Source: a virus (lineage: Duplodnaviria; Heunggongvirae; Uroviricota; Caudoviricetes). Taken from it: DNA of 41,266 nucleotides. The position numbers and the translations under genes are program-made. Below are positions 20,408 through 41,266 of this stretch, one piece after another (position 1 is the stretch's first letter; the number at the start of each line of letters is the position of its first letter). The stretch is taken from the IMG/VR virus record IMGVR_UViG_2534681675_000019; one strand, written 5' to 3'. The notes beneath the pieces are model-generated. The model was not told where the DNA came from. It ran no database searches and saw only the letters and a program-made list of their open reading frames with translations.

Positions 20408-20423
20408 GCCTCGCGAATCAGAC

Positions 20424-20446: not shown

Positions 20447-20457
20447 CAGGAGTGTAT

Positions 20458-20781
20458 ATGGAACTCGTAAACCTCAAAACCGGCACTGACAGCTACCAGG
20501 ATGAGAGCGGAGAAACCAGAACTCGCGATGAATACCCGTGGGGGCTGTGCATCACTCTTAATAACGACACATTGAATAAGCTGAAGGCACAACCTCAGGG
20601 CGTCGGAACAGAAGTGATGATAACTGCAAAGGCTGTTATTCGAGGCCTGTCTGCCAGAGAAACTGACGATGGTGTTAATCGCAGCGCCGATCTGCAGATC
20701 ACTGATATGGCGATCGCTCCTGTTTCCGGGGATGTAGAAAAATCAGCGGCTGAAACTCTGTACGGTAACGGAGGTGAGTGA
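20458..20781 (+). CDS. Virion structural protein
   Basis: 107 aa from ATG 20458 (GCAGGAG upstream). Confidence 0.4.
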   Translation: MELVNLKTGTDSYQDESGETRTRDEYPWGLCITLNNDTLNKLKAQPQGVGTEVMITAKAVIRGLSARETDDGVNRSADLQITDMAIAPVSGDVEKSAAETLYGNGGE

Positions 20782-24291: not shown

Positions 24292-24836
24292 TGTGCGATC
24301 CGGTTATTGCTGGTGGCGCAATGCTCGCCATGAGTGGCATTCAGGCATACACCCAGTACCAACAGGGAAAGTATGCCTCGAAGGTTGCAGAAGCGAACGC
24401 AGATATAGCCACAGCTCAGGCAAATGATGCAATAAACAGGGGTAACGCTGAAGCTGAGCAACGGCGCAGAGAGACCCGACAGCGGCTTGGTACACAGGCA
24501 GCGACAATGGGGGCTACCGGCGCTGATTTATCTACAGGTAACGCGCTGGATATATTTGGCGACACTGCCCAGTTTGGCGCTCTTGATTCGCTGACGACGG
24601 TGAATAACGCGCAACGCGAGGCTTACGGTTATCAGGTTCAGGCTGCCAACTATAAAGCAGAAGCCAGTTCAGCCCGTAAACAGGGGAATGTGGGAGCAGC
24701 AACAACATTGCTCACTGCGCCTCTGAAGGCATACGGTGCGTACCAGATGTTTGGTGGGACGTGGAGTCCGTTTACTCAAAGCACCCCTGCGCCAATCGGG
24801 GCAGCAGCAGGAACCAGATTACCCGGAGGATTATAA
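24291..24836 (+). CDS. Internal virion protein (small, Ala/Gln-rich)
   Basis: 181 aa, translationally coupled. Confidence 0.4.
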   Translation: MCDPVIAGGAMLAMSGIQAYTQYQQGKYASKVAEANADIATAQANDAINRGNAEAEQRRRETRQRLGTQAATMGATGADLSTGNALDIFGDTAQFGALDSLTTVNNAQREAYGYQVQAANYKAEASSARKQGNVGAATTLLTAPLKAYGAYQMFGGTWSPFTQSTPAPIGAAAGTRLPGGL

Positions 24837-27349
24837 TGCCAGTCGTACCAACAGTATCCGGACGCCAGGTTGAGAGCCGTGGAGTTCAGTCAGCAGGCTT
24901 GCAGACGTTTTCTCAGCCAGGTATTGGTGATGCTTTTGTTCGGGCAGGGACAGAGGCAATTGATGTTTTGGGGCAGGCAAAACAGCGTGCCAATATCGCT
25001 CTGGCTCAGGAGGCATCTCTTAACCTCAGTCAGATAAGCAGTGATCTGCTGAATAACCCTGAAACAGGTTTGCTTAACCTGAAAGGGAAAAATGCTATTG
25101 GAAAAGGCCATGAGTATACGCAGCAGTTTGATGCTCAGGTCGAACAACTGGCTATGTCGCTGCCGGATGAACAGGCTCGTAATGCTTTCATGCAGCAGGC
25201 GCAGCAGCAGCGCATTCAGTTCACTACGCAGGCCGGGCGGCACGAGATAGGGCAAATTAATGCCTACGAAGAAGGTCAGTTTCAGGCGACGCTGCTGAAC
25301 AATGGTAAAAATGCCGCAGCATTGTATGGCGACAATGCCGCATACGTATTGGCTAATAAGCAAACTTTCCAGCAAATTGAGGAGTACGGTGCTGCACATG
25401 GCTGGAGCGACGAGCAAATACAGGCCAAGAAAATCGAGTTTAAAGAGAAGGTTGCTGATGCAGCATTGTCCCAGTGGTCGGCAAACAATGCGACCGCATT
25501 CATCCAAAGTAATGGCGAGTTAAGTGATACTGCTGCTGGAGCTCGCCGTGCTGTAACAGATAGTGGCTCTTCCGAGCGTGTCCGTGGCATACGCAACAAT
25601 AACCCCGGAAATCTCGAATACAGCAAAACTAATCCGTGGGTAGGCCAGACCGGTGATGATGGTAGATTTGCTAAATTCGAAACACCTGAACACGGGATTC
25701 GTGCATTAGGGCGGAACCTGATGTCGTATCAGCGGCAGGGTATTGATACCGTCAGCGAGATAATTAATCGCTGGGCACCGCCTACTGATAAAAATGACAC
25801 TATGTCGTATATCAAAGCAGTGTGCGAACAACTTGGCGTTTCTGCTGATGAGCCTCTCGATGCATCAAATCCTGATACCCTGAAGGCGCTTTGTGCAGCC
25901 ATTATCCATCATGAGAACGGTAGCCAGCCATACAGTGATCAGCAGTTAACTGCTGGTGTCAGTGCAGCACTTGGTTTATCAACAATTCCAACCAACACCA
26001 AACGCTATACCGGTAATGCAGCATTCGATGCGGCATCTCCTGAGGCTCAGGCAAGTTTTATGCGGCAGGCGGATCAACTGCGTCGGCAGCAGCAGGCTGA
26101 ATATAAAACGATGATTGACAGCCAGGTTCGCGATGCGACGGCTGCGTATATGCGTGGCGTTGAATTTCCTAACCCACCTGGTGAGGCTGATTTTATTGCA
26201 GCTTATGGAGTCAGAGAAGGAAACCTGCGATATACCGAGTTTAAGAATACGCAGATCGCCGGACAGTATATAGGCTCTTTCCGCAACATGCCGACAAGCA
26301 GCATTACAGCATATGTTGAGCAATTACGCCCGGATACTGGTGAGACAGGGGAGGGTTATGCGGCTCGCGCAGCTCTTTATGACAACGTTGTTTCGGCTGC
26401 AAATCAGGTGATAAAGCAGCGGCAGTCTGATCCTGTGCAGTTCTCTCTTGCCTCTGGACAGGCAAAGCCTATCGACATGAGCAATAAGGATAACTTTGGA
26501 CAGAGCGTTGCCTTGCGTGCCGCTCAGGTCAGTGACCTTGCTAAGTCATATGGCACTCCACTGACGTTCTTTTCCAAAGACGAGGCCAATCAGATCGGTG
26601 TTTTTTTTCGTGATGCTCCAGTTTCCCAACAGGCAGCATATCTCGATACCATCAGGCAGAGCACTGGTGGTGGGCAGGTGTATATGTCAGCACTACAGCA
26701 GATCAGTGCCAACGCTCCATCTGCTGCCGTTGCCGGGATACTGATGGACAAGCCTGGTGGTATTTTGGCAGAAAAAAACTGGTTTAATCCGGATGTTTCC
26801 GTGTCTCCTGAAACCGCTGCGCAGACAATTCTTACTGGCGCGGCGGCTCGTAAAGGTACTGATGATGCGAAAGGTATTCCGATGCCTAAAGATGCTGATC
26901 TTCGCCTTGAGTTTTCTGACATGGTGAAGGATGCATTTGCTGGTGATGCTCAGGGGGCATCAATGGCATACGAGATCGCAAAGGACTATTACGCTGGTGT
27001 GATGGCGAAAAAAGGCGTGATATCAGGCGAAATTGACACTGATATCTGGAAACAGGCTGTTAACGTAGCTACAGGTGGCGTGCATGACTATAACGGAATG
27101 GGGAATGTCCTTTTGCCGTGGGGAATGTCTGCAGAGCAATTCGATAAGCAGGTTAATCAGGCTTGGAATGAACAAGTTGTCGGCTCCGGGATAAAAACAC
27201 CGCCTGGTCAGTATGGTTTGCAAAGTTACGGCGATAGTCAGTACCTGGTGAAACTTGGTACTGGTTATCTGCTGAAAGATGATGGTTCTCCCGTTGTTCT
27301 TAATCTGACACAGAAACGTCAGAGATTCTCCGGAGATATTCCGCAATGA
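24836..27349 (+). CDS. Large internal virion/ejection protein
   Basis: 837 aa from ATG 24836 (overlaps the previous stop); contains a conserved-looking block GIRNNNPGNLEYS...FAKFETPEHGIRALGRNL...RWAPP of unknown function. Confidence 0.45.
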   Translation: MPVVPTVSGRQVESRGVQSAGLQTFSQPGIGDAFVRAGTEAIDVLGQAKQRANIALAQEASLNLSQISSDLLNNPETGLLNLKGKNAIGKGHEYTQQFDAQVEQLAMSLPDEQARNAFMQQAQQQRIQFTTQAGRHEIGQINAYEEGQFQATLLNNGKNAAALYGDNAAYVLANKQTFQQIEEYGAAHGWSDEQIQAKKIEFKEKVADAALSQWSANNATAFIQSNGELSDTAAGARRAVTDSGSSERVRGIRNNNPGNLEYSKTNPWVGQTGDDGRFAKFETPEHGIRALGRNLMSYQRQGIDTVSEIINRWAPPTDKNDTMSYIKAVCEQLGVSADEPLDASNPDTLKALCAAIIHHENGSQPYSDQQLTAGVSAALGLSTIPTNTKRYTGNAAFDAASPEAQASFMRQADQLRRQQQAEYKTMIDSQVRDATAAYMRGVEFPNPPGEADFIAAYGVREGNLRYTEFKNTQIAGQYIGSFRNMPTSSITAYVEQLRPDTGETGEGYAARAALYDNVVSAANQVIKQRQSDPVQFSLASGQAKPIDMSNKDNFGQSVALRAAQVSDLAKSYGTPLTFFSKDEANQIGVFFRDAPVSQQAAYLDTIRQSTGGGQVYMSALQQISANAPSAAVAGILMDKPGGILAEKNWFNPDVSVSPETAAQTILTGAAARKGTDDAKGIPMPKDADLRLEFSDMVKDAFAGDAQGASMAYEIAKDYYAGVMAKKGVISGEIDTDIWKQAVNVATGGVHDYNGMGNVLLPWGMSAEQFDKQVNQAWNEQVVGSGIKTPPGQYGLQSYGDSQYLVKLGTGYLLKDDGSPVVLNLTQKRQRFSGDIPQ

Positions 27350-29148
27350 GTTACTTTGGCCTTAATCCAGTAAACCAGAATCAGCAGCTTGACGAAGCAG
27401 CATCAAATCCAGCTGGCTTTAACAGCGATGTTGGTTTTTTCGACAATGCTGTAGGAGCGGCATTGTCTGGTTTGTACTCCGGGCTGGTGGCAAAGCCAGA
27501 TCAGTTGCTATGGGCAGGGATGGATAAAATCGTATCCCCGATTGCTCAGTTTGTTAACGAAAACACCTCGCTCAATGACACTTCAGTTTCATACATTGCT
27601 GAGCAGAGAAAACTAGCAGAGCAGCAGGTTAAGCGGCTGACGCCTGATGCCGCGACAACCGGAACCGCCGGGCAGGTCCTTTATGGGTTGTTCGATATGG
27701 GCGGGCAGGCTGTTGTTGGTACAACGCTCGGTGGTCCGGTCGGAGGTGCTGCGGCGGTAACTTCGCTACAGGGTTTTTCTGAGTTTGAACGGCTGACAGC
27801 ACAGGGTGTTGATTTCAGGACGGCGCAGGAAGCGGGATTAGTGCAGGGTATTACTGCTGGTGCCGGAACACTGATCCCTATGAGCCTCGGGTTACGTGCT
27901 GGTGGTGCGCTGGCGGAAGGTGTGGCGGCTCAGCTTGCGCGGACGGGTGAAAGTTCAGTGCGACGCGCCGCAGCAACAGCAGTACGTGCAACGCCAGATA
28001 TTGCCTATGCCGCAGGTACAAATATTGCGTTCGGTATGGCACAGCGTGGGCTTACTGCAAAAACGCTTCGTGATGGTGGCTATAGCGAAATGGCTAATCA
28101 GTATGATGTGTTGGATCGACAGGCAATTGCTATTGATGCTGTTCTTGGAGTGGCGTTTGGTGGTGTCGGCAGATTTATTAACTCTCGCGGCGAGTCTACA
28201 AGCGCACCAAATTTTTCACCAGTTGATGTCGATGCTGCACTGGCGGCGAATGCCGCTCATCATGCTGAAATTGATATTGCTCCCGGTGTGCCGATCAACG
28301 TGCTTTCGCGTAATTCGCACATTCAGGCTCTGCGAAAAGCCATGTCTGATGTTAGCCAGGGGAGACCTGTAGACGTTGCCAGCATTGTTGAGTCTGCATC
28401 TTTCAGTGAAATTCCTGGGCGCAAGAGTCTGCTTTCTCAGGCAGTTAATGAGGCTCTGTCATCTGTAGATGATGGAGTAACGGCGCGCGCTATAGAAAAT
28501 CGGTTGCTTGAAGAACAGGCCGCGCAGCTTTTGCCGCGTGGCGATAGACAGGTTTACCAGTCTGAAATCGCTAATAGCCAACGAATTATTGAAAATCTCA
28601 CTGAACAGCGCGCACAAATTCTTGCAGAAGAGCCAACCGGTAGCGGTAAGGCTTTATCTCGTGCTCGATCAGATAAACAGGCCAGACTTCGCGATATTGA
28701 CCAACGAATCCGGCAGGCACAAGAACGCCTGGAATTTTCTCGTAACGCGTTGGCACCGCATGAGCCTGGCGGTCAGTTTTTTGAAGCTCGAGCAGAACTG
28801 GCACGGCGACTGCAGGTAGAAAGTGAACTTAATGCTCAGGCTGTTTCATTCTATAAAACAGCAGAGGTCAGGACGCCAGACGAAGTAGCTCCTTTTGAGC
28901 CTGATAAAATATTGCAACAGGCAGAACAAAAAATGATGGCGGATCAGGCGGGAGATATTGATCTGCGCATAGCTGAAGACTCGCTGCTTGAATCACCTGA
29001 CATGATAATCACCGTGCTGGATGATGATGGTAATCCACAATCGCGCAGTGCGCGTGAAGTACTGGATGAAGCGAACAGGGAAAGTGAGCAGGCAATACAG
29101 GATTCCAGCCTGTTTGATGTTGCTGTGGCGTGTTTCTTGAGAGGTTAA
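27346..29148 (+). CDS. Large internal virion/ejection protein
   Basis: 600 aa, coupled; Gly/Ala-rich N-terminal half. Confidence 0.45.
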   Translation: MSYFGLNPVNQNQQLDEAASNPAGFNSDVGFFDNAVGAALSGLYSGLVAKPDQLLWAGMDKIVSPIAQFVNENTSLNDTSVSYIAEQRKLAEQQVKRLTPDAATTGTAGQVLYGLFDMGGQAVVGTTLGGPVGGAAAVTSLQGFSEFERLTAQGVDFRTAQEAGLVQGITAGAGTLIPMSLGLRAGGALAEGVAAQLARTGESSVRRAAATAVRATPDIAYAAGTNIAFGMAQRGLTAKTLRDGGYSEMANQYDVLDRQAIAIDAVLGVAFGGVGRFINSRGESTSAPNFSPVDVDAALAANAAHHAEIDIAPGVPINVLSRNSHIQALRKAMSDVSQGRPVDVASIVESASFSEIPGRKSLLSQAVNEALSSVDDGVTARAIENRLLEEQAAQLLPRGDRQVYQSEIANSQRIIENLTEQRAQILAEEPTGSGKALSRARSDKQARLRDIDQRIRQAQERLEFSRNALAPHEPGGQFFEARAELARRLQVESELNAQAVSFYKTAEVRTPDEVAPFEPDKILQQAEQKMMADQAGDIDLRIAEDSLLESPDMIITVLDDDGNPQSRSAREVLDEANRESEQAIQDSSLFDVAVACFLRG

Positions 29149-29153
29149 ATTAA

Positions 29154-31628
29154 ATGAGACAGGAATGTATACAAGCGGTCCAGCAGGCGGCGCAGCGCAC
29201 GTTAACGGCGCGAGAAATACAGAACATTGAAGACCGCATTTATCGAAATATGCGCTCCATTGCTCGTGATGACCCGATGTCGTGGCGACAACTTTCCGAA
29301 TCAGAACGGTTGTATCGTGCAGCACAATTGGCATCTGAAGAATTACAGCGAGAAGCGGCATTAAAGAAACGTCGTGTGGCCCTCACTATAGCCGCACGTC
29401 AGAGATTGGATAAATTTATCAATAGCTATCAAGGGGCTGATGGGAAACTTGGCGCTCTTAACCGTACTATTGCTTTTAATGCAGACGGTAAATCGAATTT
29501 CCTCTCTGTTGAATCCAGAACAAAAGCCACCCGTGATTATGCATTGAGTCAATTGCAGGAGGCATTCGAAGCAGTTGATCCTCGCTTTTTTGGTCTGTTT
29601 GAAGATGAAGCGGGCGTACGTGACCTGGTATATGAAATGCGGGGGCAAAATACTGGCAATGCTAAAGCAAGAAAAGGTGCTAAGGCGTGGAGAGAAGTTA
29701 CAGAGCTGCTGCGCCGCCGGTTTAATGATGCTGGTGGGGACATTGGCTATCTCGAAAACTGGGGGATCCCTCAACATCATTCTATGGAAAAGGTTGGGGC
29801 GGTATCAAAAGATAAATGGGTTAGCGATGTTATAGGTAAGCTGGATCGCAAATATTATACCCGAGCCGATGGACAACTGATGAACGATGCCGAGTTGTCT
29901 GCATTTCTTGGAGAGGCTTATAACACGATCGCTACTGGTGGGCTGAATAAGCTTACTGATACCGGAATGCGAATTTCCGGCGCACGTGCTAACCGTGGTA
30001 ATGCATCACGACAGATACATTTCAAAGATGCAGATTCCTATCTGCAATATCAGCAACTTTATGGCGATCGCTCTCTATGGGAAATCATGGTCGGTCACCT
30101 TGAAGGTATCAGTAAAGATATTGCACTGGTGGAAACATATGGCCCAAACCCCGATCATGTTTTCCGCTCTCTTCTTGATCAGGTGAAGGCAGAAACGGCA
30201 ACAGCTAACCCGAGTAAAACCGGTAAAGTCGAGCGGCTGGCGAACAACACAGAGAATCTGTACAACTTTATTTCCGGAAAGACACAGCCTGTAGCGAATC
30301 CGCACATCGCGCGATGGTCTGACAATATCCGCAACTGGCTGGTTGCCAGCAGACTCGGATCCGCGTTGCTGTCATCGTTCTCTGATCTTGGAACCATGTA
30401 TCTGTCTGCGAAGGTGACCAACCTTCCAATGAACCAGTTATTCCGCAACCAGCTTGAAGCTATGGACCCAACGAACCGTACAGAACTTGCGCGGGCGCGC
30501 CGCGCTGGTCTGGCGATGGAATCTCTACTTGGCAGCGTTAACCGCTGGGCGATGGATAATATGGGGCCGTCAGTGTCTCGTTGGGCGGCAAAGGCGGTAA
30601 TGCGTGCCAGTGGGCTTACAGCATGGTCAGATGCGCACAAGCGCGCCTATGGCGTAACCATGATGGGAAGCCTGGGAGAAGTAGTGTCACGGACACCAGA
30701 CCTTCGTAGCCTCGATGACTCTGATTTTCGTATCCTGAAAAGCAAAGGGATTACTGACACAGACTGGAGCGTATGGAAGCTGGCGCAACAGGAGGACTGG
30801 GGGAACGGTAATAATACGATGCTGACACCGGAAAGCATTATGCGTATCCCTGATTCAGCAGTTAAACATCTTGGTGAGCCTGAACGCGTGAAATTTGAGG
30901 CAATGCGTAAACTGCTCGGTGCCGTAACTGAAGAAGTTGATATGGCTGTTATTACACCGGGAGCACGTGAGCAACTGATAACCGGTTCTGGTATTCAGCG
31001 TGGAACATGGAAAGGTGAATTAACGAGAAGTGTTTTCCTGTTTAAATCGTTCCCTATCTCGGTGGTTATGCGTCACTGGTCACGCGCTATGGGTATGCCG
31101 TCTGCTGGTGGGCGTGCGGCATATATTGCGACGTTTATTGCCAGCACGACCATTCTTGGCGCTTTGTCTCAGCAACTTAACGACCTTGCGTCTGGTCGTA
31201 ATCATCGCGAGATGACAGGAGAAGATGCTGCTAAATTTTGGCTTGGTGCTCTACTGAAAGGTGGTGGTCTTGGCCTTTACGGTGACTTTTTATTGTCAGA
31301 TCACACTAGGTACGGAAGCGGCGCGCTGGCGTCGATGCTTGGCCCGGTAGCTGGTCTGGTTGATGACGTAGTGAAGATTGCTCAGGGCATACCGTTAAAT
31401 GCTGTGGAAGGGAAGAATGAGCAGACTGGTGGTGATCTGGTTAAGCTGGGGAAAGGTCTGATGCCAGGTGCGAATCTCTGGTACTTAAAGGCGGCTCTCG
31501 ATCACATGATCTTTAACCAGATGCAGGAGTATTTTTCACCAGGCTATTTGCGTAAAATGGAGCAACGTTCGAAGAAAGAGTTTAACCAGACATACTGGTG
31601 GCGACCTCAGGATGTCACTCCGCAATAA
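29154..31628 (+). CDS. Large internal virion/ejection protein
   Basis: 824 aa, GAGAGG Shine-Dalgarno; last large gene of the core block. Confidence 0.45.
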   Translation: MRQECIQAVQQAAQRTLTAREIQNIEDRIYRNMRSIARDDPMSWRQLSESERLYRAAQLASEELQREAALKKRRVALTIAARQRLDKFINSYQGADGKLGALNRTIAFNADGKSNFLSVESRTKATRDYALSQLQEAFEAVDPRFFGLFEDEAGVRDLVYEMRGQNTGNAKARKGAKAWREVTELLRRRFNDAGGDIGYLENWGIPQHHSMEKVGAVSKDKWVSDVIGKLDRKYYTRADGQLMNDAELSAFLGEAYNTIATGGLNKLTDTGMRISGARANRGNASRQIHFKDADSYLQYQQLYGDRSLWEIMVGHLEGISKDIALVETYGPNPDHVFRSLLDQVKAETATANPSKTGKVERLANNTENLYNFISGKTQPVANPHIARWSDNIRNWLVASRLGSALLSSFSDLGTMYLSAKVTNLPMNQLFRNQLEAMDPTNRTELARARRAGLAMESLLGSVNRWAMDNMGPSVSRWAAKAVMRASGLTAWSDAHKRAYGVTMMGSLGEVVSRTPDLRSLDDSDFRILKSKGITDTDWSVWKLAQQEDWGNGNNTMLTPESIMRIPDSAVKHLGEPERVKFEAMRKLLGAVTEEVDMAVITPGAREQLITGSGIQRGTWKGELTRSVFLFKSFPISVVMRHWSRAMGMPSAGGRAAYIATFIASTTILGALSQQLNDLASGRNHREMTGEDAAKFWLGALLKGGGLGLYGDFLLSDHTRYGSGALASMLGPVAGLVDDVVKIAQGIPLNAVEGKNEQTGGDLVKLGKGLMPGANLWYLKAALDHMIFNQMQEYFSPGYLRKMEQRSKKEFNQTYWWRPQDVTPQ

Positions 31629-31637
31629 GGAACAACA

Positions 31638-32051
31638 ATGAAGGAATTATTGCTGTTATCGGTATTTTTGATATCCGCTTGCTCGACATCCTATGATGTT
31701 TATGACGGTGTTGATAAGGCATATTGCGACAAGGTTAAAATGGATTTTTCTCTTGCCAAGACGGCGAAGGATAGTTGTATTGATCACTACGTCAAGACTT
31801 ATACCAAGTCAGCATCATCGGCATCTGATATTGCTGAAGGTGCTGTGTTTGAGTGTAACAAGGTGATATCCATCGCAGCGAGTTCTTCATACGATGCTGC
31901 TGTATGTGCAATGGCTGAAAGAAACGGCATGTCTGTGCAAAAAGTTAATAGCATGATAAACAGTAATGACGAAGCCAAAATAAGAACTGATATCAGCTCG
32001 GTGAAAAAAGATGCCATGAACAGAGTTGTAAAATATCAGTCATCTTTATAA
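31638..32051 (+). CDS. Lipoprotein (signal peptide with lipobox LISAC)
   Basis: 137 aa; MKELLLLSVFLISAC; AAGGAA Shine-Dalgarno; last gene of the late operon before a terminator. Confidence 0.6.
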   Translation: MKELLLLSVFLISACSTSYDVYDGVDKAYCDKVKMDFSLAKTAKDSCIDHYVKTYTKSASSASDIAEGAVFECNKVISIAASSSYDAAVCAMAERNGMSVQKVNSMINSNDEAKIRTDISSVKKDAMNRVVKYQSSL

Positions 32052-32054
32052 GTC

Positions 32055-32090
32055 GTGACATGTCACAGGCCGCTTTCGCGGCCTTTAAAT
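32055..32090 (+). terminator. GTGACATGTCAC palindrome (copy 3) plus intrinsic terminator
   Basis: Palindrome 32055-32066, then stem GGCCGC/GCGGCC with loop TTTC (32068-32083) followed by TTTAAATTT. Confidence 0.55.
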
Positions 32091-32348
32091 TTACCGGGTT
32101 TGTTTTCGTAATTGTTCGGCACAATAGTCGAGATGTGTTTGCAGATCCTGCATAGACATCTGTGAGCTGGTGACGTAGTTAATCAGTGCAGTCAGTTCGG
32201 CAAGTGGGCCATCGACATTAAATCCATCCTTATCGAGATCCCGGAGTAATTTCATCAAGTGCGATCCTTCCACCAGTGACCTGACGCCTCCCGGCGTGTG
32301 AATCCTTTCGGTAAATCCCTCTTCCAGTGGATAGTGATACTGCTGCAT
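32091..32348 (-). CDS. Small LexA-box-associated protein (antirepressor candidate)
   Basis: 85 aa from ATG 32348 (GGAG 8 nt upstream); a near-consensus LexA box lies 20 bp upstream. The 126-aa track ORF would contain the box and is rejected. Confidence 0.5.
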   Translation of the reverse strand: MQQYHYPLEEGFTERIHTPGGVRSLVEGSHLMKLLRDLDKDGFNVDGPLAELTALINYVTSSQMSMQDLQTHLDYCAEQLRKQTR

Positions 32349-32367
32349 CTTATCTTCTCCATGCAAT

Positions 32368-32387
32368 AACTGTATGTTTATACAGTA
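32368..32387. promoter_or_regulatory. LexA (SOS) box
   Basis: AACTGTATGTTTATACAGTA matches TACTGTATATATATACAGTA at 17 of 20 positions, with CTGT-N8-ACAG intact and an AT-rich spacer; overlaps a TATAAA -10-like hexamer on the minus strand. Confidence 0.65.
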
Positions 32388-32424
32388 GCAAATAATTTGT
32401 TTGCTATCCAGCACGTTTTGCGAA

Positions 32425-32439
32425 TCACCTGAAAGGTAA
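32425..32439. promoter_or_regulatory. TCACC-N5-GGTAA site in the divergent region between the small gene and the tailspike
   Basis: TCACCtgaaaGGTAAT; 37 bp from the LexA box. Confidence 0.45.
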
Positions 32440-32543
32440 TATCTGCTCACATTAACACTCTTTCCATCCATATATGGTTTTTCAGGTAATAGAATAACCA
32501 GATATGCGGCGCAACGGGTGCTGCGACTATCTGGAGATTTAAC

Positions 32544-34796
32544 ATGACGGTCTCAACCGAAGTTGACCACAACGAATACACAGGCAATGGCGTTACGACT
32601 TCATTCCCTTATACCTTTAGGGTTTTCAAGGAATCTGATCTGGTAGTGCAGGTGGTTGACCTTGACGAAAATATCGCTGTGCTGGCTCTTGATACTGATT
32701 ACACTGTCACTGGGGCTGGTGGATATAACGGCGGTAATGTAATTCTGTCGAAGGCGTTAGCTAACGGTTACCAGATTTCTATATCACGAGAGCTCCCGGT
32801 TACGCAGGAAACTGATTTGCGTAATCAGGGGAAGTTCTTTGCAGAAGTGCATGAGGATGCTTTTGATAAGCTAACGATGCTGATCCAGCAGGTTCGAAGT
32901 TGGTTTAGCTTGGCGCTGCGCAAGCCGTCATTCGTAGCAAATTATTATAACGCGCTGAACAACTATATTCGGAACCTGAAAGACCCGGTTAACCCGCAGG
33001 ATGCAGCCACAAAGAATTATGTGGACAGCACGGCTTTATCGAACATCAACCATACCATCCGAGTTCCTGACGCTTATATCGATCCGCTGCCACCACTCGC
33101 TCAGCTTGAAGGCAGCATTATCGGCATTCAAAACGGGAAGCCTGTTCCTTTCCCTGTGCCTTCAGGAACGGCGGCGGACGTATTCAACCAGTTGGCCAGC
33201 AGCGCTGACGGGAAAGGTGATGCGCTGATAACAGTGAAGCAGCCTTACCAGGGGGCAACTTCTCTTTCGCAGCATATAAAAAATGCACAGGCTATAAGTG
33301 TTGTTGATTTTGGAGCGACAATTGATGGATCTCTCCACCCTTTAAGTGAAGTTTTCTCAACACTCTCAGCGGCACAGATGGTATATCCATTTGTTACGTC
33401 TCTCACGCAATCGTTGGATTATGCGGCGCTGCAGGCCGCATGTAATACTGGTAAAAAGGTGCTAATCCCAAAAGGTCTTGGATATTATAATGCCACAATT
33501 ATATTTAATAATTCAGTCAGAATTGTTGGTGAAGGGACTGATGCAATAAACCGTTCTCAGTCTTTCATGTCAATTGTTGGGAATATATCAGCCTTCGCAT
33601 TAGCTCAGGGTAGCTCAACATCAACGAAAATGATCCAGATTTTCATTGATGGCCTTTATATCTTTTATAACCCTGGCTCTACCCCAACAAACTCATCAAC
33701 AGACGGCGGCAAGGTAGCTTTTAATTTCTACTCAACAGTCCCTAATTCTACTGGGCTGGAAATGTCAGAAATTAAAAATTGTACAGTTCATGGGGCGTGG
33801 TCGTGCTTTAATGACCAGACAGGAACCTATCTTACAAAGCTTACGAATGTGTGGGCCAGGAACTGTCATAATGGTTTTACCAAAGGAACTGGCACAACAA
33901 TCCTTCTGGAAAGATGTTATGCATCTGGTTGTATTTCTCCTTACCAGTTTGGTTCTGTCTTCGCGGTTACAATGATTAACTGCGCGATGGATGGATCAAA
34001 TATTTCATTAAGCGCCGGGACGCTTGGAGGGGCTGGAGTTCACATCCTTAACACGCACAGTTTCAATATTATTGGCTTTGATGCAGAGGGAAACACCATC
34101 TCTACGGATGGAGCTGGAGAAGCTGCGCTGTTCCATTTTGAGAATAGTAGTGGTGGCTTATCCGGGCTTACCGCACATCAGAACAGCATGCGAAGTGTTG
34201 CGCCAAGTGATGCTGGTGTAGTTTCCTACATCAGGGCGTCAGGTAGCAGCGATGTTAAAATTGAGTCATCAGAAGATGATTTATCTGACACCAACCCAGT
34301 TGCATATACTGGGTCTGGGTATCCCATTATGTTACATGCAATAGACACAGCTAAAATAAGTGTCTTTAATAGCCGGTTCAGAGCAACCACTACAGGAACT
34401 CCTGTTTTAAGTACGCTAAGTACTGGTGATGTATCATGGTATGACTGCCCTAAAAAAACAGGACTTATCGCCAATGGTTACTCGCAGACTACATCTCAGG
34501 AAGGGTTGCAAACATCATGCTTCTCTACCAGTAAAGGCTCTACTTCTGTGGCTGCAAATACCCCGACAACACTTTTTTCTCTGCCAAATTCTCAAGGCAC
34601 TTACATTATCAGCGTTTGGGGATCTGGTAGTGGGACAAACTATGCGTCAACGCAGTTAGCAATGTATGATGGAACTTTGTATCTTACGGCATTGAAAGCT
34701 GCAGCGTTCCTGACATTTACTGTAACCGGAAGAATAGTAACCCTGACGAGCCAGGGGGCTGGAACTTTTAGTTGGACTTACACGAAAATAGGTTAA
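32544..34796 (+). CDS. Tailspike/tail fiber with T7 gp17-like N-terminal adaptor domain
   Basis: 750 aa; N-terminal YTGNGVTTSFPYTF...TDYTV...RELPVTQETDL...AEVHEDAFDKL parallels the T7 gp17 N-terminus (from memory); the C-terminal two-thirds is visibly AT-rich and Ser/Thr/Gly/Asn-rich, consistent with a receptor-binding module. Confidence 0.7.
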   Translation: MTVSTEVDHNEYTGNGVTTSFPYTFRVFKESDLVVQVVDLDENIAVLALDTDYTVTGAGGYNGGNVILSKALANGYQISISRELPVTQETDLRNQGKFFAEVHEDAFDKLTMLIQQVRSWFSLALRKPSFVANYYNALNNYIRNLKDPVNPQDAATKNYVDSTALSNINHTIRVPDAYIDPLPPLAQLEGSIIGIQNGKPVPFPVPSGTAADVFNQLASSADGKGDALITVKQPYQGATSLSQHIKNAQAISVVDFGATIDGSLHPLSEVFSTLSAAQMVYPFVTSLTQSLDYAALQAACNTGKKVLIPKGLGYYNATIIFNNSVRIVGEGTDAINRSQSFMSIVGNISAFALAQGSSTSTKMIQIFIDGLYIFYNPGSTPTNSSTDGGKVAFNFYSTVPNSTGLEMSEIKNCTVHGAWSCFNDQTGTYLTKLTNVWARNCHNGFTKGTGTTILLERCYASGCISPYQFGSVFAVTMINCAMDGSNISLSAGTLGGAGVHILNTHSFNIIGFDAEGNTISTDGAGEAALFHFENSSGGLSGLTAHQNSMRSVAPSDAGVVSYIRASGSSDVKIESSEDDLSDTNPVAYTGSGYPIMLHAIDTAKISVFNSRFRATTTGTPVLSTLSTGDVSWYDCPKKTGLIANGYSQTTSQEGLQTSCFSTSKGSTSVAANTPTTLFSLPNSQGTYIISVWGSGSGTNYASTQLAMYDGTLYLTALKAAAFLTFTVTGRIVTLTSQGAGTFSWTYTKIG

Positions 34797-35104
34797 TGTT
34801 ATTTTAGGGGAGCGATGCTCCCCATCATCAATTAAAAAATAAACTGTCCATCATTTTTTAGTTTTTTACCAAACTCCCTTGAGCCTTCCAGAGTGAAATG
34901 GCTATTGTCAAAGTAAAGATAATCACCTTTCTTTGATAGAATGTCACAATTCATAGCCTTTCCGCACTGCTCGGCAAGCGTATCTATGTATTTATACGAA
35001 TGCTGGTTGCTACTAGACTGGCCCCCTGAATCTCCAGACAACCAGTATCACTTAAATAAGTGATAGTCTTAATACTAGTTTTTAGACTAGTCATTGGAGA
35101 ACAG

Positions 35105-35470
35105 ATGATTGATGTCTTAGGGCCGGAGAAACGCAGACGGCGTACCACACAGGAAAAGATCGCAATTGTTCAGCAGAGCTTTGAACCGGGGATGACGGTC
35201 TCCCTCGTTGCCCGGCAACATGGTGTAGCAGCCAGCCAGTTATTTCTCTGGCGTAAGCAATACCAGGAAGGAAGTCTTACTGCTGTCGCCGCCGGAGAAC
35301 AGGTTGTTCCTGCCTCTGAACTTGCTGCCGCCATGAAGCAGATTAAAGAACTCCAGCGCCTGCTCGGCAAGAAAACGATGGAAAATGAACTCCTCAAAGA
35401 AGCCGTTGAATATGGACGGGCAAAAAAGTGGATAGCGCACGCGCCCTTATTGCCCGGGGATGGGGAGTAA
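35105..35470 (+). CDS. insC: IS2 transposase OrfA (InsC)
   Basis: 121 aa, [24 protein letters not shown]...; HTH; ends just past the AAAAAAG frameshift site. Confidence 0.85.
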
Positions 35471-36333
35471 GCTTAGTCAGCCGTTGTCTCCGGGTGTCGC
35501 GTGCGCAGTTGCACGTCATTCTCAGACGAACCGATGACTGGATGGATGGCCGCCGCAGTCGTCACACTGATGATACGGATGTGCTTCTCCGTATACACCA
35601 TGTTATCGGAGAGCTGCCCACGTATGGTTATCGTCGGGTATGGGCGCTGCTTCGCAGACAGGCAGAACTTGATGGTATGCCTGCGATCAATGCCAAACGT
35701 GTTTACCGGATCATGCGCCAGAATGCGCTGTTGCTTGAGCGAAAACCTGCTGTACCGCCATCGAAACGGGCACATACAGGCAGAGTGGCCGTGAAAGAAA
35801 GCAATCAGCGATGGTGCTCTGACGGGTTCGAGTTCTGCTGTGATAACGGAGAGAGACTGCGTGTCACGTTCGCGCTGGACTGCTGTGATCGTGAGGCACT
35901 GCACTGGGCGGTCACTACCGGCGGCTTCAACAGTGAAACAGTACAGGACGTCATGCTGGGAGCGGTGGAACGCCGCTTCGGCAACGATCTTCCGTCGTCT
36001 CCAGTGGAGTGGCTGACGGATAATGGTTCATGCTACCGGGCTAATGAAACACGCCAGTTCGCCCGGATGTTGGGACTTGAACCGAAGAACACGGCGGTGC
36101 GGAGTCCGGAGAGTAACGGAATAGCAGAGAGCTTCGTGAAAACGATAAAGCGTGACTACATCAGTATCATGCCCAAACCAGACGGGTTAACGGCAGCAAA
36201 GAACCTTGCAGAGGCGTTCGAGCATTATAACGAATGGCATCCGCATAGTGCGCTGGGTTATCGCTCGCCACGGGAATATCTGCGGCAGCGGGCTTGTAAT
36301 GGGTTAAGTGATAACAGATGTCTGGAAATATAG
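35428..36333 (+). CDS. insD: IS2 transposase OrfB (InsD), DDE catalytic domain
   Basis: 301 aa, [30 protein letters not shown]...; overlaps orfA in the -1 frame at AAAAAAG (35422-35428). Confidence 0.85.
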
Positions 36334-38063
36334 GGGCAAATCCAGCTACCAAGATAGCCTTTTATCGTATTGTTAATTTCAACTCTACTATTGTCATAAT
36401 ACTTTTTAGAGTATTTATTTATCCCATCAATTGTGTTTACGCCAGATTTAAAAGCAGACTTAATTATTTCCATTGGCTGTGCCGTAAACTTCATCTTAGG
36501 CCCAAATACAATAACTTCTCCTTTAGTCCTCTCCTGTATTTTGCCTATAGAGTAAAGCATCCCGAACAGATCGCCAACGCCATAATCATCATGAAGGATT
36601 ATAATGTTAGCTTCAGCTATGGCTGGAGATGAGATCACGTCATTGAATATTTTTTTGCACTTTTCTACATAGGGCATGTCGTTTGGTGTATAACCAAAGT
36701 TTGAACATAAGTTTGTAGTTCTTATATAAGTTATATCACCCTTCATCCCATTTTCAGTAAGTGCATAAGTCAGATCTATGCCATGAGAATTACCGATTAT
36801 TACTATTTTTTTGTCACCTGTCTTCGGTACAGGGTGAGGCTTGTCTCCATCAACCCAATACCTGTTCATTTGTTCTTTTAGCTGTTCGGACGTCATTGTG
36901 GCAAACGAAAACCTTGATGGAATTCCAGATAGCAATAGTACAGCGAAGCACAAACCAACTACACCACCTACAGGTAGCACGATTGAAGTTAATTCATTCA
37001 AGGACCTGCCGTTTTTAAATTTTGAAAGTGCCTTTCTTGAAGGGTTTTCAATTAAATAAAATGATGCGGCACCAATAAGAATTGATAAGGCAACACCTGA
37101 TACTGTATAAACCATATCATCCATCTTATTCATTGACATATAGACAACTATGGGCCAGTGAACCAGATATACCGAGTATGAAATTTTCCCAACCCATTGA
37201 GATAATGCATTATCAAGTAACAGGTTATCTTTACATCCAAGATAAATGACAAAGAAAGTAGAAACGACTGGTATTAAGGCAAGATACCCAGGCCACTTCA
37301 TTAAGCTGTTAAGCAAGACTATCCCCGATACTGCAAAGGCTATGGCAATCCATCTAAATACAGCAGTGCGTTTTGAATTTTGTATAGTAGGAAGAAGGTA
37401 GGCAAGGCCGCCAGCCAGCATCTCCCAAGCTCTGCTTGACAGAAGATAAAATGCAGCCCCCTGATTATTATAAGAAAGATACACTGAGGCAGTAAATGAT
37501 ATAATTGCAAGGATGGCAACAACATACCTTATATGCTTAGCGCCCAATAGCTTTGCAATTGCCATCATTATGATTGGATATACCATGTAAAACTGCCACT
37601 CTACAGAAAGCGACCATGTATGAAGAAGCCATTTCTGCTTTGATGCAGTGTCAAAATAATCAATGCTATGGTAATACTCAACGTTTGAGAAAAATAAAAG
37701 GCTACTTCTTACGTGTTGAGCCAGGTATTCATATTCAGAAGGCAAAAGAATGAAGTAACCAACTATCAGAACAGCAACTGAAACTACAGTTAAAGCTGGT
37801 ATAATCCTTCTTGCCCTATCAAGATAAAATCCTAACAGTGAAAAGTTTCCATTAGATATCTTTGTGTAAATTATTCCAGTCATCAGATACCCTGATATAA
37901 CAAAGAATATATCTACGCCTGAAAACCCACCAGAAAACCCTTTGACTCCGAAGTGATAAAGGACAACTGCCATGACAGCAATAGCCCTGAGTCCGCCTAT
38001 ATCAGTTCTGTATTTTAAAGAAGACATAATCGCTATCGTTTTGAGTAAGATGCGTTAATGATA

Positions 38064-38078
38064 TCACCTTTAGGGTAA
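38064..38078. promoter_or_regulatory. TCACC-N5-GGTAA site in the divergent region between the acyltransferase and the lysis genes
   Basis: TCACCtttagGGTAAT. Confidence 0.45.
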
Positions 38079-38183
38079 TTTCGTTAAGAGTTATCCGATC
38101 AAAATTAATCCACATATGGTTTATTGTGTATGATGAACTCACCAACTAAGGGGGTTCTTTATGCACAATAAACGGTGGTCACT

Positions 38184-38585
38184 ATGGCGCATGTGCTGAC
38201 AACAGAGTCAGTAAATCAGGGGTTAAGCCTGACTGCACTGGCGTCCGTGTTCGTTGGTATACCGCCTGAGGTGGCTTTAGGTGCTCTTGCTGGTGCGGTA
38301 ATTTTTGTTACCTCTGCGGTAGAGTACCCAATTCATCGTCGCGTACTCTTATCGATGCTTAGCTTTCTCTGCGGACTTCTTTTCTATAAACCAGCAGCAT
38401 CAATTCTTATCGGCATAGCCAGCCTGATCCCTACCATCACGCAGGACTCTTTCGAGAAAGGGATTGTTTTCTCTGCTGGTGCATTCGTGTCAGCAATCGT
38501 TGCAGTTCGAATTGGCATCTGGCTCTATCACCGTTCCGATAATCCACGCGAGTTAATTCCGGGGAGAAAAGGCGATGGTAACTAA
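38184..38585 (+). CDS. Holin-like membrane protein
   Basis: 133 aa from ATG 38184; about four hydrophobic helices and a charged C-terminus; first gene of the lysis cassette. Confidence 0.5.
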   Translation: MAHVLTTESVNQGLSLTALASVFVGIPPEVALGALAGAVIFVTSAVEYPIHRRVLLSMLSFLCGLLFYKPAASILIGIASLIPTITQDSFEKGIVFSAGAFVSAIVAVRIGIWLYHRSDNPRELIPGRKGDGN

Positions 38586-38883
38586 TGAGCTTGTTTTGCT
38601 TATCACCAATGCACTTATTTGTACTGGCATAGCAATTCGTGTTGTCACATTCCGGCGTAACGGTTCACAACATCGAAGGTGGGGAGGGTGGCTTGCTTAT
38701 TTCCTTATTGTTGCTGCGGCCAGTATTCCTGTTCGTGTCGTCTATGCAATCTGGTTACGCACGCCAATGGCTGTGGATTTATCTGAGGTCATTATCAACG
38801 CTGTCATGCTTGCTGCGGTTCTTAAAACTCGCGGTAACGTCGTTCAGATTTTCAAAATAACGAGGTCTAAACATGGAGATTAA
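38575..38883 (+). CDS. Holin/antiholin-like membrane protein
   Basis: 102 aa with two to three hydrophobic helices; overlaps its neighbours; immediately upstream of the endolysin. Confidence 0.45.
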
Positions 38884-39499
38884 ACAATTCCAGCGAGCTG
38901 CTGGTATTAGCGAGGCGCTGGCCGCACGCTGGTTCTCGCATATAACTTCTGCGATGAAAGAGTTTGGTATCAGCAAACCAGAAGATCAGGCAATGTTTAT
39001 TGCTCAGGTCGGGCATGAGTCTGGAGGCTTCACCCGGCTGCAGGAGAACTTCAACTACAGCGTGACTGGGCTGGCGGGATTCGTCCGTGCCGGGCGCCTC
39101 ACTCAGGGCCAGGCCAACGCGCTGGGCCGTCGTGCTGGTGAGCCATCGTTACCGCTGGAGCGCCAGCGTGCGATCGCCAATCTGGTGTATAGCAAGCGCA
39201 TGGGGAACAACGGGCCGACTGACGGCTGGTTTTACCGTGGGCGCGGGCTTATCCAGATTACCGGTTTGAATAACTATCGTGACTGCGGAAACGGTCTAAA
39301 AGTGGACCTGCTGGAGAATCCTGAGCTGTTGACGCAGGACGAATACGCGGCCCGCAGCGCGGCGTGGTTCTTCGCCAGTAAAGGTTGTATGAAGTATCCA
39401 CGCGACCTGGTGCGCGTCACGCAGATTATCAACGGTGGCCAGAACGGTATCGACGACCGGCGATCGCGTTACGGTGCTGCCTGTAAGGCGCTGTTATGA
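38873..39499 (+). CDS. Endolysin, glycoside hydrolase family 19-type
   Basis: 208 aa; [10 protein letters not shown] and [15 protein letters not shown] blocks characteristic of GH19 lysozymes. Confidence 0.8.
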
Positions 39500-39978
39500 T
39501 CTGGGCATTTGTCAAAGCATACTGGAAACAGTTGCTTATCATGGCGATGCTTGCTGCGCTGGTTGTCATCGGTGTGGTTGCCTGGAATGTTCACGGTGAC
39601 CTGCAGTATGCCGCCGGCTATGAGCAGGCAAAGACAGACCGTAAAGCCCAAGATGATAAAGCTCGTCAGCACTACGAACAGGAGAAATCGATCAATGAAC
39701 GTGAAGTGCAGCAGAGGATCGACCAGGCGCGCAATGATGCTCTTGATGCTGCCGCTCGCGCTGGCCGGTTGCAGCAACAGCTCGTTGCCATCCGTGAGCA
39801 GCTCAGGCACTATAACGCCATTGTCGGCGCTGGGTCGTCAGCCGCAGATACCGGAGTTTTGCTTGCCGACGTGCTCAGCAAATCTCTCGAGAGAAACAGA
39901 CAACTGGCAGAGTATGCTGACCGGGCAGCCGAAGCCGGAAGAGTCTGCGAAAAACAGTACGACACCCTGACCAGATAG
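39496..39978 (+). CDS. Rz-like inner-membrane spanin
   Basis: 160 aa; N-terminal transmembrane helix then coiled-coil; start overlaps the endolysin stop. Confidence 0.6.
39734..39970 (+). CDS. Rz1-like outer-membrane lipoprotein spanin, embedded in Rz in the +1 frame
   Basis: 78 aa, [17 protein letters not shown] (lipobox LAGC), Pro-rich mature part, fully inside the Rz gene. Confidence 0.55.
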   Translation: MMLLMLPLALAGCSNSSLPSVSSSGTITPLSALGRQPQIPEFCLPTCSANLSRETDNWQSMLTGQPKPEESAKNSTTP

Positions 39979-40120
39979 CATGGCATTTTTCATGGTACTG
40001 ATTTCCGGTGACGGTATATAAAACGGTACGGGAAAAATTCATCTTTGGAAAAATGTTATCACTCAATTGGTTATGGTGTCCGTAAATAATTGAGTGGGAA
40101 TGATTTGATCCCTGCACTAT

Positions 40121-40195: not shown

Positions 40196-40735
40196 TTAGT
40201 TAAACCAGCTGTCCGATTTGTTCTCTTCTGCTTTGCCCACGCTTTTCATCAGATCGCGACCGCCTTCAGTCATATTCCTGTTTGCGTCAGCTTCAGATTG
40301 CACCACATCGGTTTGCGCAGCTTTGTGCTTCAGTTCCTGATCGATAAATTCGTTTTCTCGCTTAACGCGGGCTTCTTCTTTCGCCAGCGCCAGTTTTTGT
40401 TTCTGAATCTCTAAGCTGCGTAGCTCATCTTCATAACTTTGATCGCGTTTCTTGTCCGCAGTGGCTTCGGCGTCCAGTTTATCCTGACGAGCTTTCTTAT
40501 TCGCCGCTGCCGTTGCCGCTCTTTTATTAGCCGCGGCCTGGGCGTTTGCGCGACGTTGCTTCTCTTGCTGGATTTCCCTGTTGCGCTCCGCGACCCATTC
40601 GTCATGCTGCCTTTGCTCTTCATTTTTACCTTGCTGTTCCGCTTCTGCGACAGCAGAGAGTTGATCCTGCAATGATGAGGCGATAGCCGGATAGCTTAAG
40701 GAGGCTAAGATGGCGCAAAGAAAAACTTTCTTCAT
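40196..40735 (-). CDS. Secreted Ala/Gln/Lys-rich coiled-coil protein (probable host or cargo gene)
   Basis: 179 aa with N-terminal signal peptide MKKVFLCAILASLSYPAIASS; GGAGGAG Shine-Dalgarno. Confidence 0.5.
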   Translation of the reverse strand: MKKVFLCAILASLSYPAIASSLQDQLSAVAEAEQQGKNEEQRQHDEWVAERNREIQQEKQRRANAQAAANKRAATAAANKKARQDKLDAEATADKKRDQSYEDELRSLEIQKQKLALAKEEARVKRENEFIDQELKHKAAQTDVVQSEADANRNMTEGGRDLMKSVGKAEENKSDSWFN

Positions 40736-40750
40736 GACTCCTCCTGATTA

Positions 40751-41266
40751 TTAGCTCTTTTCAGGACATTTGGTATTTGGCTGAATACGCGTTTCGTTAT
40801 ACGTCGTGGTAATAACAACGGCTAAACCTGTCGTAAACTGGCACTCTTTACCCACCTGGGTGGAGGTATACACTTTGGTGCCTTCCTTATACGTTAGAGA
40901 AACACCTTCCACTAAGGTTTTATCATTCACCATAGAACCTGCTGCCGCGCCAACAGCTCCGCCGCCAACTGCACCTGCCGTCGTTCCGGAATTGCTGCCA
41001 GACCCCACGTTGTGGCCGATAACACCGCCAGCGACTGCACCAATAAGCGCGCCGAAGGCTTGTGCGTTTCGTTTATTTTGGGAGTTGTCTACGGCAACTT
41101 TTGCGGGAAGAATGGAAATAATATTAACGGTTTTAGTTTCTTGTTTGGTATTCAGTTGATCGGTTTGATAAACATCGGCGGCATGATCATCAGCATTTGA
41201 CTGGCATCCTGCCAGAGTGAATGACGCTAACATTGCCACAGGCAGAAGACATTTTTTAAATTTCAT
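40751..41266 (-). CDS. Glycine-zipper outer-membrane lipoprotein (SlyB/YcfJ-like)
   Basis: 171 aa; lipobox LAGC; Gly/Ala zipper GALIGAVAGGVIGHNVGSG...; start at the window edge. Confidence 0.55.
   Translation of the reverse strand: MKFKKCLLPVAMLASFTLAGCQSNADDHAADVYQTDQLNTKQETKTVNIISILPAKVAVDNSQNKRNAQAFGALIGAVAGGVIGHNVGSGSNSGTTAGAVGGGAVGAAAGSMVNDKTLVEGVSLTYKEGTKVYTSTQVGKECQFTTGLAVVITTTYNETRIQPNTKCPEKS

Follow-up and report, generated by a model that had tools for sequence, protein, structure and literature searches.

Probable nested recombination at the tailspike end of a phiV10/epsilon15-like prophage carrying an IS2-interrupted acyltransferase gene

The 41,266-nucleotide (nt) virus record IMGVR_UViG_2534681675_000019 of IMG/VR (Caudoviricetes; the whole stretch is referred to here as the window) carries a tailspike gene of 750 amino acids (aa) next to an acyltransferase gene on the opposite strand. 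We show that this region is very probably the terminal part of a phiV10/epsilon15-like prophage concerned with host range and serotype conversion, built by nested recombination exchange and carrying an acetylase gene broken by the insertion sequence IS2. Four levels of exchange would very probably account for the pattern: 1) the right arm in its entirety (32054 to the attachment site) would have passed between phiV10-like and TL-2011b-like backbones, 2) positions 33026-38056 would have been replaced wholesale relative to phiV10, 3) the tailspike body alone would move among Uetakevirus, P22-like, Drexlerviridae and Kayfunavirus anchors, and 4) patches of an anciently diverged allele would have been recombined into the body. 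A later IS2 insertion after acyltransferase codon 561 would then have removed the Asp and His of the SGNH domain. A first-pass annotation had instead described a single AT-rich module at 33300-38900, comprising the distal tailspike, the acyltransferase and the first holin, grafted onto a conserved adaptor and later entered by IS2.

The window is a complete temperate podovirus prophage of the phiV10/epsilon15 type (Uetakevirus). Its terminase-to-virion core (12325-31631) is 98.0% identical to phiV10 at the nt level across 19.3 kb, the left end (1-1257) is a tyrosine integrase, and the right end (40196-41266) consists of the host genes yfgI and yfgH. The guaA-yfgI integration site is common to the window and to related prophages of E. 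coli FT130, MFDS1019527 (MFDS) and SCU-116. Within the region studied, the order is tailspike, IS2, minus-strand acyltransferase, two holin-type genes, GH19 endolysin and Rz-like gene. On this phiV10-like backbone, the tailspike gene thus follows the genes for the large virion/ejection proteins and precedes the lysis cassette.

Tailspike architecture and homology breakpoints

The tailspike falls into an anchor (aa 1-160), a neck (aa 161-249) and a body (aa 250-750), whose coordinates are given in Table 1. The anchor matches Uetakevirus spikes only (90-100% aa identity), with 100% to FT130, 99.4% to MFDS and SCU-116, 90.6% to phiV10 and 89.4% to TL-2011b, and is homologous to phiV10 gp25 and epsilon15 gp20. 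The N-terminus also resembles that of the Dpo31/Dpo36 depolymerases in PDB. This part would fix the tailspike to the virion, while the beta-helix body from aa ~250 to 750 would bind the receptor. The tailspike gave no match to any Pfam or NCBIfam family. An AlphaFold2 (AF2) model of aa 217-750 is nearly all beta, with a predicted local distance difference test (pLDDT) score of 83.2, and the best PDB matches found by Foldseek are the tailspikes of phi297, LKA1, Sf6, HK620 and CBA120 (probability 1.0). The model thus predicts a C-terminal right-handed beta-helix of the receptor-binding/depolymerase kind, and the most likely role of the body is the binding and cleavage of an O-antigen.

Anchor and body have different relatives. 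From aa ~216 onward, the tailspike matches the 652-aa spike of an ETEC1730 prophage (88%, 97% and 82% aa identity over aa 248-545, 546-645 and 646-750), so that over aa 216-750 this P22-type spike (82-97% aa) is as close as the nearest Uetakevirus spikes. The ETEC1730 spike carries a P22-type head-binding N-terminus (PF09008); its prophage is P22-like (Arc, Ant) and lacks an acyltransferase gene next to the spike. FT130, with a Uetakevirus anchor, and ETEC1730, with a P22 anchor, share body DNA at 99-100% identity on anchors that are unrelated, which we read as a recent cross-family transfer. More distantly related bodies occur in Drexlerviridae tail spikes (SU57, 2725-N35, JeanPiccard; 41-61% aa), in Lederbergvirus 611R6 (41-60% aa), where an OafA/YrhL-type acetylase follows, and in the Kayfunavirus Pectobacterium phage LET1 (30-42% aa). 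Among the ~120 homologues from the protein database, the body is joined to anchors of several architectures: 750-aa Uetakevirus-type, PF09008, PF18668 and Drexlerviridae spikes of 842-860 aa. Across phage genera (11 spikes), anchor and body trees are not congruent, and the proximal and distal parts of the tailspike clearly do not share one phylogeny. These discordant relationships corroborate the earlier proposal of an exchanged distal tailspike on a conserved adaptor. One tailspike homologue of the FT130 type (P0124, 90% identical body) is labelled 'Escherichia coli O2'; the label is unverified and we assign no serogroup from it.

The graft had been placed at a single point near residue 250. 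Junctions do exist, but they are nested within the neck: similarity to phiV10 and TL-2011b stops at 33025-33035 (aa ~160), P22-type similarity starts at aa ~216 (33204), and near-identity to FT130 stops at ~33282 (aa ~247). On the scale of the genome, similarity to phiV10 falls from 98% to none at 31632, returns at 88.6% over 32091-33025, is absent over 33026-38056, and resumes at 85% over 38057-40105; for TL-2011b the pattern is the same, and the breaks fall at 33035 and 38105. Compared with these two phages, the replaced stretch accordingly runs from tailspike aa ~160 through the acyltransferase and ends upstream of the first holin-like gene. The same junctions recur in seven independent assemblies, making an assembly artefact behind the breakpoints unlikely.

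A larger unit is also discernible. In four other assemblies (L019, L020, L021 and L023), the right arm of the window (32054/32091-41266) is found at 99.4-99.97% identity on a TL-2011b-like backbone whose virion genes are 95.9% identical to TL-2011b and which occupies the same chromosomal site. The shared arm starts with the small minus-strand gene at 32091-32348, and holds an identical 750-aa tailspike, an intact acyltransferase and the lysis genes, implying, on the sequence evidence, arm-level recombination between two prophage types. The acyltransferase of L021 is annotated as 571 aa and was considered as a second independent disruption; this was rejected, as its DNA shows a single substitution relative to the intact gene and the shorter product is owed only to another start-codon call. 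In relatives, the modification-gene slot behind the tailspike is occupied by AT3-only acetylases on either strand (phiV10, TL-2011b), by AT3-SGNH fusions (FT130, SCU-116, PAS61, Tyrion) or by an O-antigen polymerase/ligase-family gene (E15), and is empty in EC.W1-9.

Comparison with FT130, the closest Uetakevirus relative, reveals a finer patchwork inside the body, measured as synonymous divergence (dS) and the ratio of nonsynonymous to synonymous divergence (dN/dS). The first 247 aa are almost unchanged (dS = 0.006, dN/dS = 0.31), aa 248-545 are strongly diverged (dS = 1.51, dN/dS = 0.044), aa 546-645 return to near-identity (dS = 0.014, dN/dS = 0.61), and aa 646-750 diverge again (dS = 1.12, dN/dS = 0.091). 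Relative to the allele of FT130 and ETEC1730, the body is thus a mosaic of two diverged tracts and one near-identical tract. The FT130-type body is also found in MFDS1019527, and the body type of the window in GCA_000194175.2, GCA_017172955.1, GCA_032506505.1, GCA_041162845.1 and GCA_012485955.1. The second diverged tract does not stop with the tailspike gene; it spans the intergenic hairpin and takes in the final ~30 acyltransferase codons, beyond which identity to FT130 is 99-100%. Receptor-binding proteins are classic targets of arms races, and the aa differences (11-17%) are concentrated in the body, as rapid diversifying selection within one lineage would predict. We consider this explanation extremely unlikely, because saturated dS (1.1-1.5) is combined with low dN/dS and abuts, across sharp boundaries, patches with a dS of 0.006-0.014, and because a diverged tract crosses the hairpin into the 3' end of another gene. 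Diversifying selection was rejected as the source of tailspike divergence on its dN/dS of 0.04-0.09, and the diverged patches appear to be imported, anciently diverged DNA under purifying selection rather than the product of rapid adaptive change. Since the acyltransferase is 99-100% identical to that of FT130 while the body patches exceed a dS of 1, the two genes have separate histories.

The acyltransferase gene and its IS2 insertion

The gene adjoining the tailspike is identified from its domains and conserved residues as an O-antigen-type AT3-SGNH acyltransferase of the OafA/OafB type. In its present form, the open reading frame (ORF) continues for 28 codons into IS2, reaches a stop at 36258 and encodes 589 aa; it lacks Asp595 and His598, and hence a complete SGNH triad, and has no PF19040 match. 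In-silico removal of IS2 and one GCTAC copy yields an uninterrupted 619-aa frame that matches PF01757 (2.8e-31) and PF19040 (8.6e-13, residues 402-611). This reconstructed protein combines an AT3 domain bearing the R/K-X10-H, FFxISG and RxxR motifs with a fused SGNH domain bearing Ser, Asp and His. Across 25 aligned homologues, the most distant at 32% identity, R14, H25, G33-G34-F35, D39, R71/R74, S114, E327, S414, D595 and H598 are invariant, as is FFxISG (F41-F42-x-I44-S45-G46). Mutagenesis of Salmonella OafA has shown that R14, H25, G34, D39, R69/R72, S112, E325 and S412/D587/H590 are essential (PMC7448272), and the invariant residues of the acyltransferase map one-for-one onto these essential residues. 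Searched against PDB by sequence, the acyltransferase found no match even at E <= 1, so the catalytic assignment rests on Pfam, the invariant columns and the OafA literature. Intact 619-aa copies are carried by FT130, MFDS, L017, L019, L020 and L023. Its nearest intact homologues, at 99% identity, come from E. coli prophages, and the next, in Citrobacter, Enterobacter, Aeromonas, Providencia and Cronobacter, are only ~50% identical.

By analogy with characterized phages, the acceptor would be the O-antigen of lipopolysaccharide (LPS), and its modification would block phage adsorption. Specifically, the 619-aa enzyme would, in a lysogen, pass acetyl groups across the inner membrane onto the O-antigen, and the altered receptor would no longer admit phages of the same specificity, as with phiV10 Oac and Sf6 Oac (PMC9558356) and with BTP1 GtrC.

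The first-pass annotation had IS2 landing inside the exchanged region, and it does lie there, more exactly inside the acyltransferase gene. The element (IS3 family) is flanked by a 5-bp duplication, GCTAC, at 35009-35013 and 36345-36349. Its proteins match PF01527 (helix-turn-helix, orfA) and PF00665/PF13683 (DDE/rve, orfB), and it is 99.85% identical to the copy in MFDS1019527 and 99.3-99.85% identical to copies in thousands of E. coli genomes, which together identify it as IS2. The genome GCA_000194175.2 is 100% identical to the window, IS2 included, whereas GCA_017172955.1 has an empty site with a single GCTAC and only 1 mismatch in 13.4 kb. The existence of a near-identical prophage with an empty site indicates that the insertion is recent and strain-specific. 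In OafA, the D587A mutant keeps 10% of activity and H590A under 1% (PMC7448272). Because IS2 severs Asp595 and His598 from the rest of the triad, the acyltransferase is most likely dead in the lysogen, and by the same reasoning O-antigen modification has most likely been lost in the lysogen that carries IS2. The prophage of MFDS1019527 holds an independent IS2 (99.85%; L004 3005-4336, corresponding to ~29616-29621 of the window) within its homologue of the 824-aa virion protein gene at 29154-31628. With one insertion in that virion gene and one in the acyltransferase of the window, this prophage family has been struck at least twice, at different sites.

The body of the window is, in two patches (dS of 1.1-1.5), an anciently diverged allele of the body that elsewhere accompanies this same acyltransferase. 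It is conceivable, if improbable, that it has a different fine specificity, for example for the acetylated form of the O-antigen or for a sister serogroup. If so, the acyltransferase would give the lysogen no protection from its own phage type, its knock-out by IS2 would be neutral or even favoured, and the window would have caught a decoupled receptor-binding and receptor-modifying pair in mid-turnover.

Base composition and the limits of the exchanged stretch

The guanine-plus-cytosine content (GC) of whole segments was compared, as z-scores, with same-length stretches drawn from 1-31631. Three hand counts on 60-bp samples had suggested that the distal tailspike, the acyltransferase and the holin are AT-rich; the counts were exact (0.300, 0.317 and 0.367), but 60-bp tiles of the window have a mean GC of 0.493 with a standard deviation (SD) of 0.075, and single tiles are so noisy that only whole-gene tests carry weight. 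The core (12325-31631) has a GC of 0.508. The value of about 55% that had been taken as typical of capsid and endolysin holds for the endolysin (0.576, z = +3.0) and not for the capsid gene (0.507). Together with the Rz-like gene (0.547), the endolysin is GC-rich relative to the core (38873-39978). The contrast between acyltransferase and endolysin is the strongest in the window and is partly owed to this unusually GC-rich neighbour.

The acyltransferase (36345-38027) stands out, with a GC of 0.377, a GC at third codon positions (GC3) of 0.341 and z = -7.5, below every same-length stretch elsewhere. The tailspike beyond aa 160 (33026-34796) has a GC of 0.448 (z = -3.35), with 0.9% of same-length stretches of 1-31631 as low, and aa 250-750 a GC of 0.434; the anchor lies within the normal range (0.465, z = -1.4). 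A likelihood change-point scan found one low-GC block, 31501-38889, interrupted by IS2 (0.436, IS2 0.554, then 0.401) against 0.503 for 1-31500, which ends at the stop of the second holin. The coarse block first described from tiles is thus real, but it is strong only in the acyltransferase, modest in the body, weak in the second holin and absent in the first holin-like gene. Likewise, its left edge is not 33300: the AT-rich variable zone starts at 31632, and the change-point, at 31501, lies ~1.8 kb further left than had been thought. Within the tailspike, the codon-level shift in GC does begin (aa 250) almost exactly at 33300.

Dinucleotide signature and codon usage are clearly foreign only in the acyltransferase (delta* of 124, the highest null value being 94; codon usage distance z = 6.7), which upholds the reading of this O-antigen-type gene (PF01757/PF19040) beside the tailspike as foreign in composition. 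The tailspike body is marginal (dinucleotide p ~0.04, codon z 1.8-1.9), and both holins are normal. When amino acids were held fixed and core codon usage was applied, a codon-level GC deficit remained in the acyltransferase (-0.064), in tailspike aa 250-750 (-0.051) and in the second holin (-0.048), and the shift was close to zero in the anchor (+0.006) and -0.013 in the first holin. In ten relatives, the modification gene has a GC of 0.30-0.40, the tailspike body 0.37-0.45 and the endolysin 0.54-0.58; genes related to the O-antigen are usually AT-rich, a feature that in the window is strong only in the acyltransferase.

Low GC might have nothing to do with ancestry and reflect local fluctuation or protein composition (the acyltransferase being a hydrophobic membrane enzyme and the beta-helix rich in Ser, Thr and Asn) in genes that have always belonged to this lineage. 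For the acyltransferase, amino-acid composition alone brings the expected GC down to 0.439 from 0.509, and it explains the low GC of the anchor (0.465) entirely, and the tile SD and the body's codon z of ~1.9 point the same way. We regard this explanation as very unlikely. The codon-level deficits of acyltransferase and body remain once composition is accounted for, the acyltransferase lies below all same-length stretches and beyond every null dinucleotide sample, and 33026-38056 has no similarity to phiV10 or TL-2011b between flanks of 85-98%, with the body recurring on unrelated anchors.

A further question is whether body, acyltransferase and holin moved as a single block. The coarse low-GC block spans all of them, the second holin shares a codon-level deficit, and the whole right arm, lysis genes included, occurs at 99.4-99.97% identity on the TL-2011b-like backbone. 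Several observations nevertheless make one shared cassette with one history improbable. The first holin, which had been counted as deviant, is core-like in GC (0.491, z = -0.4), dinucleotides and codon usage, the sample at 38581-38640 having fallen in the second holin (0.443, z = -1.8). The similarity to phiV10 is back from 38057 on, upstream of both holins, and all eight aligned relatives have homologous lysis genes, the holins at 70-100% nt and the genes as a whole mostly so, with alleles shuffled patchwise; no non-homologous replacement was found among these eight. Divergence from FT130 also differs between the parts (body tracts with a dS of 1.5 and 1.1, acyltransferase ~0), ETEC1730 has the body without an adjacent acyltransferase, and in further Uetakeviruses different bodies stand beside different modification genes, on one strand or the other, or beside no such gene. 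The holins thus belong to a conserved, mosaic lysis module outside the swapped cassette. The PF05449 holin illustrates the shuffling: a type with a GC of ~0.44 is found in the window, FT130, TL-2011b, SCU-116, EC.W1-9 and PAS61, and a type of ~0.51-0.55 in phiV10, MFDS, E15 and Tyrion, and the copy in the window is 100% identical to that of FT130 and only 61-70% identical to that of MFDS.

The interpretation of nested exchange ending in a broken acetylase should be considered under several constraints that weigh against it. About half of the GC deficit of the acyltransferase stems from its hydrophobic amino-acid composition, the other half being codon choice. The tailspike body deviates only modestly, and GC3 is similarly low (0.41-0.46) in the virion genes next to it; body composition alone is no proof of foreign origin, and the case therefore rests on homology. 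The Foldseek template modelling (TM) scores of the tailspike model are low (0.3-0.46). The loss of function attributed to IS2 is extrapolated from OafA point mutants, and any tie of this tailspike and acyltransferase to a particular O-antigen would likewise be indirect.

Neighbouring features and known systems

The features of the region are listed in Table 1. At its left edge, the 137-aa ORF is absent from phiV10, FT130 and MFDS1019527, and in phiV10 its slot holds small membrane-protein and Bro-N genes instead. A candidate GC-rich hairpin terminator lies 3' of this ORF (32067-32084). The candidate hairpin between tailspike and acyltransferase has a fold z-score of just -1.8 and was missed by the terminator scan; over 31500-38700, the promoter/terminator scan found no excess over shuffled expectation (13 vs 15.2; 7 vs 5.7). 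Elsewhere in the window, ~2.5 kb of the early region (9175-11712) has no nt match in phiV10 between flanks of 96-97% identity, pointing to another mosaic replacement. The FT130 prophage lacks the equivalent of 6711-15821 (early/replication genes through terminase), its portal gene following directly on the early region; it is a deleted remnant in which tailspike, acyltransferase and lysis cassette are still intact.

Table 1 Features of the tailspike-to-holin region (positions in the window).
Feature	Position	Strand	Remarks
137-aa ORF, phrog_8691	31638-32051	+	GC 0.39; variable accessory ('moron') gene, left edge of the low-GC block
85-aa gene	32091-32348	-	Homologue of phiV10p24 / epsilon15 gp19; ORF extendable to 32471
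Tailspike gene, 750 aa	32544-34796	+	
Tailspike aa 1-160, genus-specific virion anchor	32544-33023	+	Homology to Uetakevirus spikes
Tailspike aa 161-249, neck/linker with nested graft junctions	33024-33290	+	GC 0.528
Tailspike aa 250-750, receptor-binding body (predicted)	33291-34796	+	Predicted right-handed beta-helix plus C-terminal beta domain
Candidate bidirectional terminator hairpin, GGGGAGC-GAT-GCTCCCC	34807-34823		Between convergent tailspike and acyltransferase genes; putative
Severed acyltransferase 3' fragment, aa ~562-619 and stop	34832-35013	-	SGNH block V (Asp595, His598)
IS2 (IS3 family), 1331 bp	35014-36344	+	orfA 35060-35470, orfB 35428-36333
Acyltransferase 5' part, aa 1-561	36345-38027	-	Full AT3 membrane domain and SGNH domain through Ser414
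Holin-like membrane protein, PF16931, phrog_198	38175-38585	+	Probable start 38184; GC 0.491
Holin, PF05449, phrog_217	38575-38883	+	Lower-GC (0.44) allele type

The architecture described here is already published, and the window is an uncharacterised further example that leaves current understanding unchanged. Three modest points deserve mention: a body that different phage families share at 99-100% identity, its internal patchwork, and the natural pair of IS2 knock-out and intact gene. The region is a well-bounded case of host-range change in temperate E. coli podoviruses via nested recombination units. For the prediction of serogroups and the engineering of specificity in phages or tailocins, the window supplies a further putative O-antigen-binding body and a further AT3-SGNH acetylase, and the pair of IS2-carrying and empty sites, 1 mismatch apart in 13.4 kb, is natural material for testing the acetylase.

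Among known systems, phiV10 is the closest in layout. The backbones are 98% identical at the nt level over 19 kb, the anchors are 90.6% identical in aa, both phages carry an AT-rich modification gene (0.309 in phiV10), and the gene order is the same: virion protein, small minus-strand gene, tailspike, convergent minus-strand acyltransferase, two holin-type genes, GH19 endolysin and Rz. In phiV10, acetylation of the O157 antigen and superinfection immunity are due to the convergent oac gene that follows the tail fibre gene, according to the account of Perry et al. (2009) given in PMC9558356. The differences lie in the exchanged stretch: the phiV10 tailspike (875 aa, O157-specific) is unrelated past aa ~160, and its Oac is a 338-aa AT3-only protein, whereas the window has a 619-aa AT3-SGNH gene with no nt similarity to it, interrupted by IS2.

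The acyltransferase resembles Salmonella OafA and OafB in its PF01757 plus PF19040 architecture and in having all essential residues in the reconstructed protein (PMC7448272, PMC9833829); it differs in that phage-borne Salmonella homologues are only ~30% identical to it and in that IS2 leaves the copy in the window without block V. IS2 itself is ordinary, with overlapping orfA and orfB and a 5-bp duplication, and only its target (codon 561/562) is of note. In Sf6 and P22-like phages, too, the late region closes with a beta-helix tailspike and, after it, a seroconversion gene that modifies the O-antigen (oac/gtr), and Sf6 tailspike residues 20-77 and 117-186 align with the neck and the start of the body in the window. 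These phages differ in their PF09008 head-binding anchor, backbone and integration site.

Finally, receptor-binding proteins (RBPs) of Uetakevirus and Lederbergvirus have been described as combining genus-level anchors with serogroup-level receptor-binding domains (RBDs) that pass horizontally between genera and group by O-serogroup, sometimes with a modification gene behind the RBP (PMC10408124, Virol J 2023). The window reproduces this pattern, including a body common to a Uetakevirus anchor and a P22-type anchor, and its intragenic body mosaic, with dS of ~0.01 beside dS >1, is finer than a swap between anchor and RBD.

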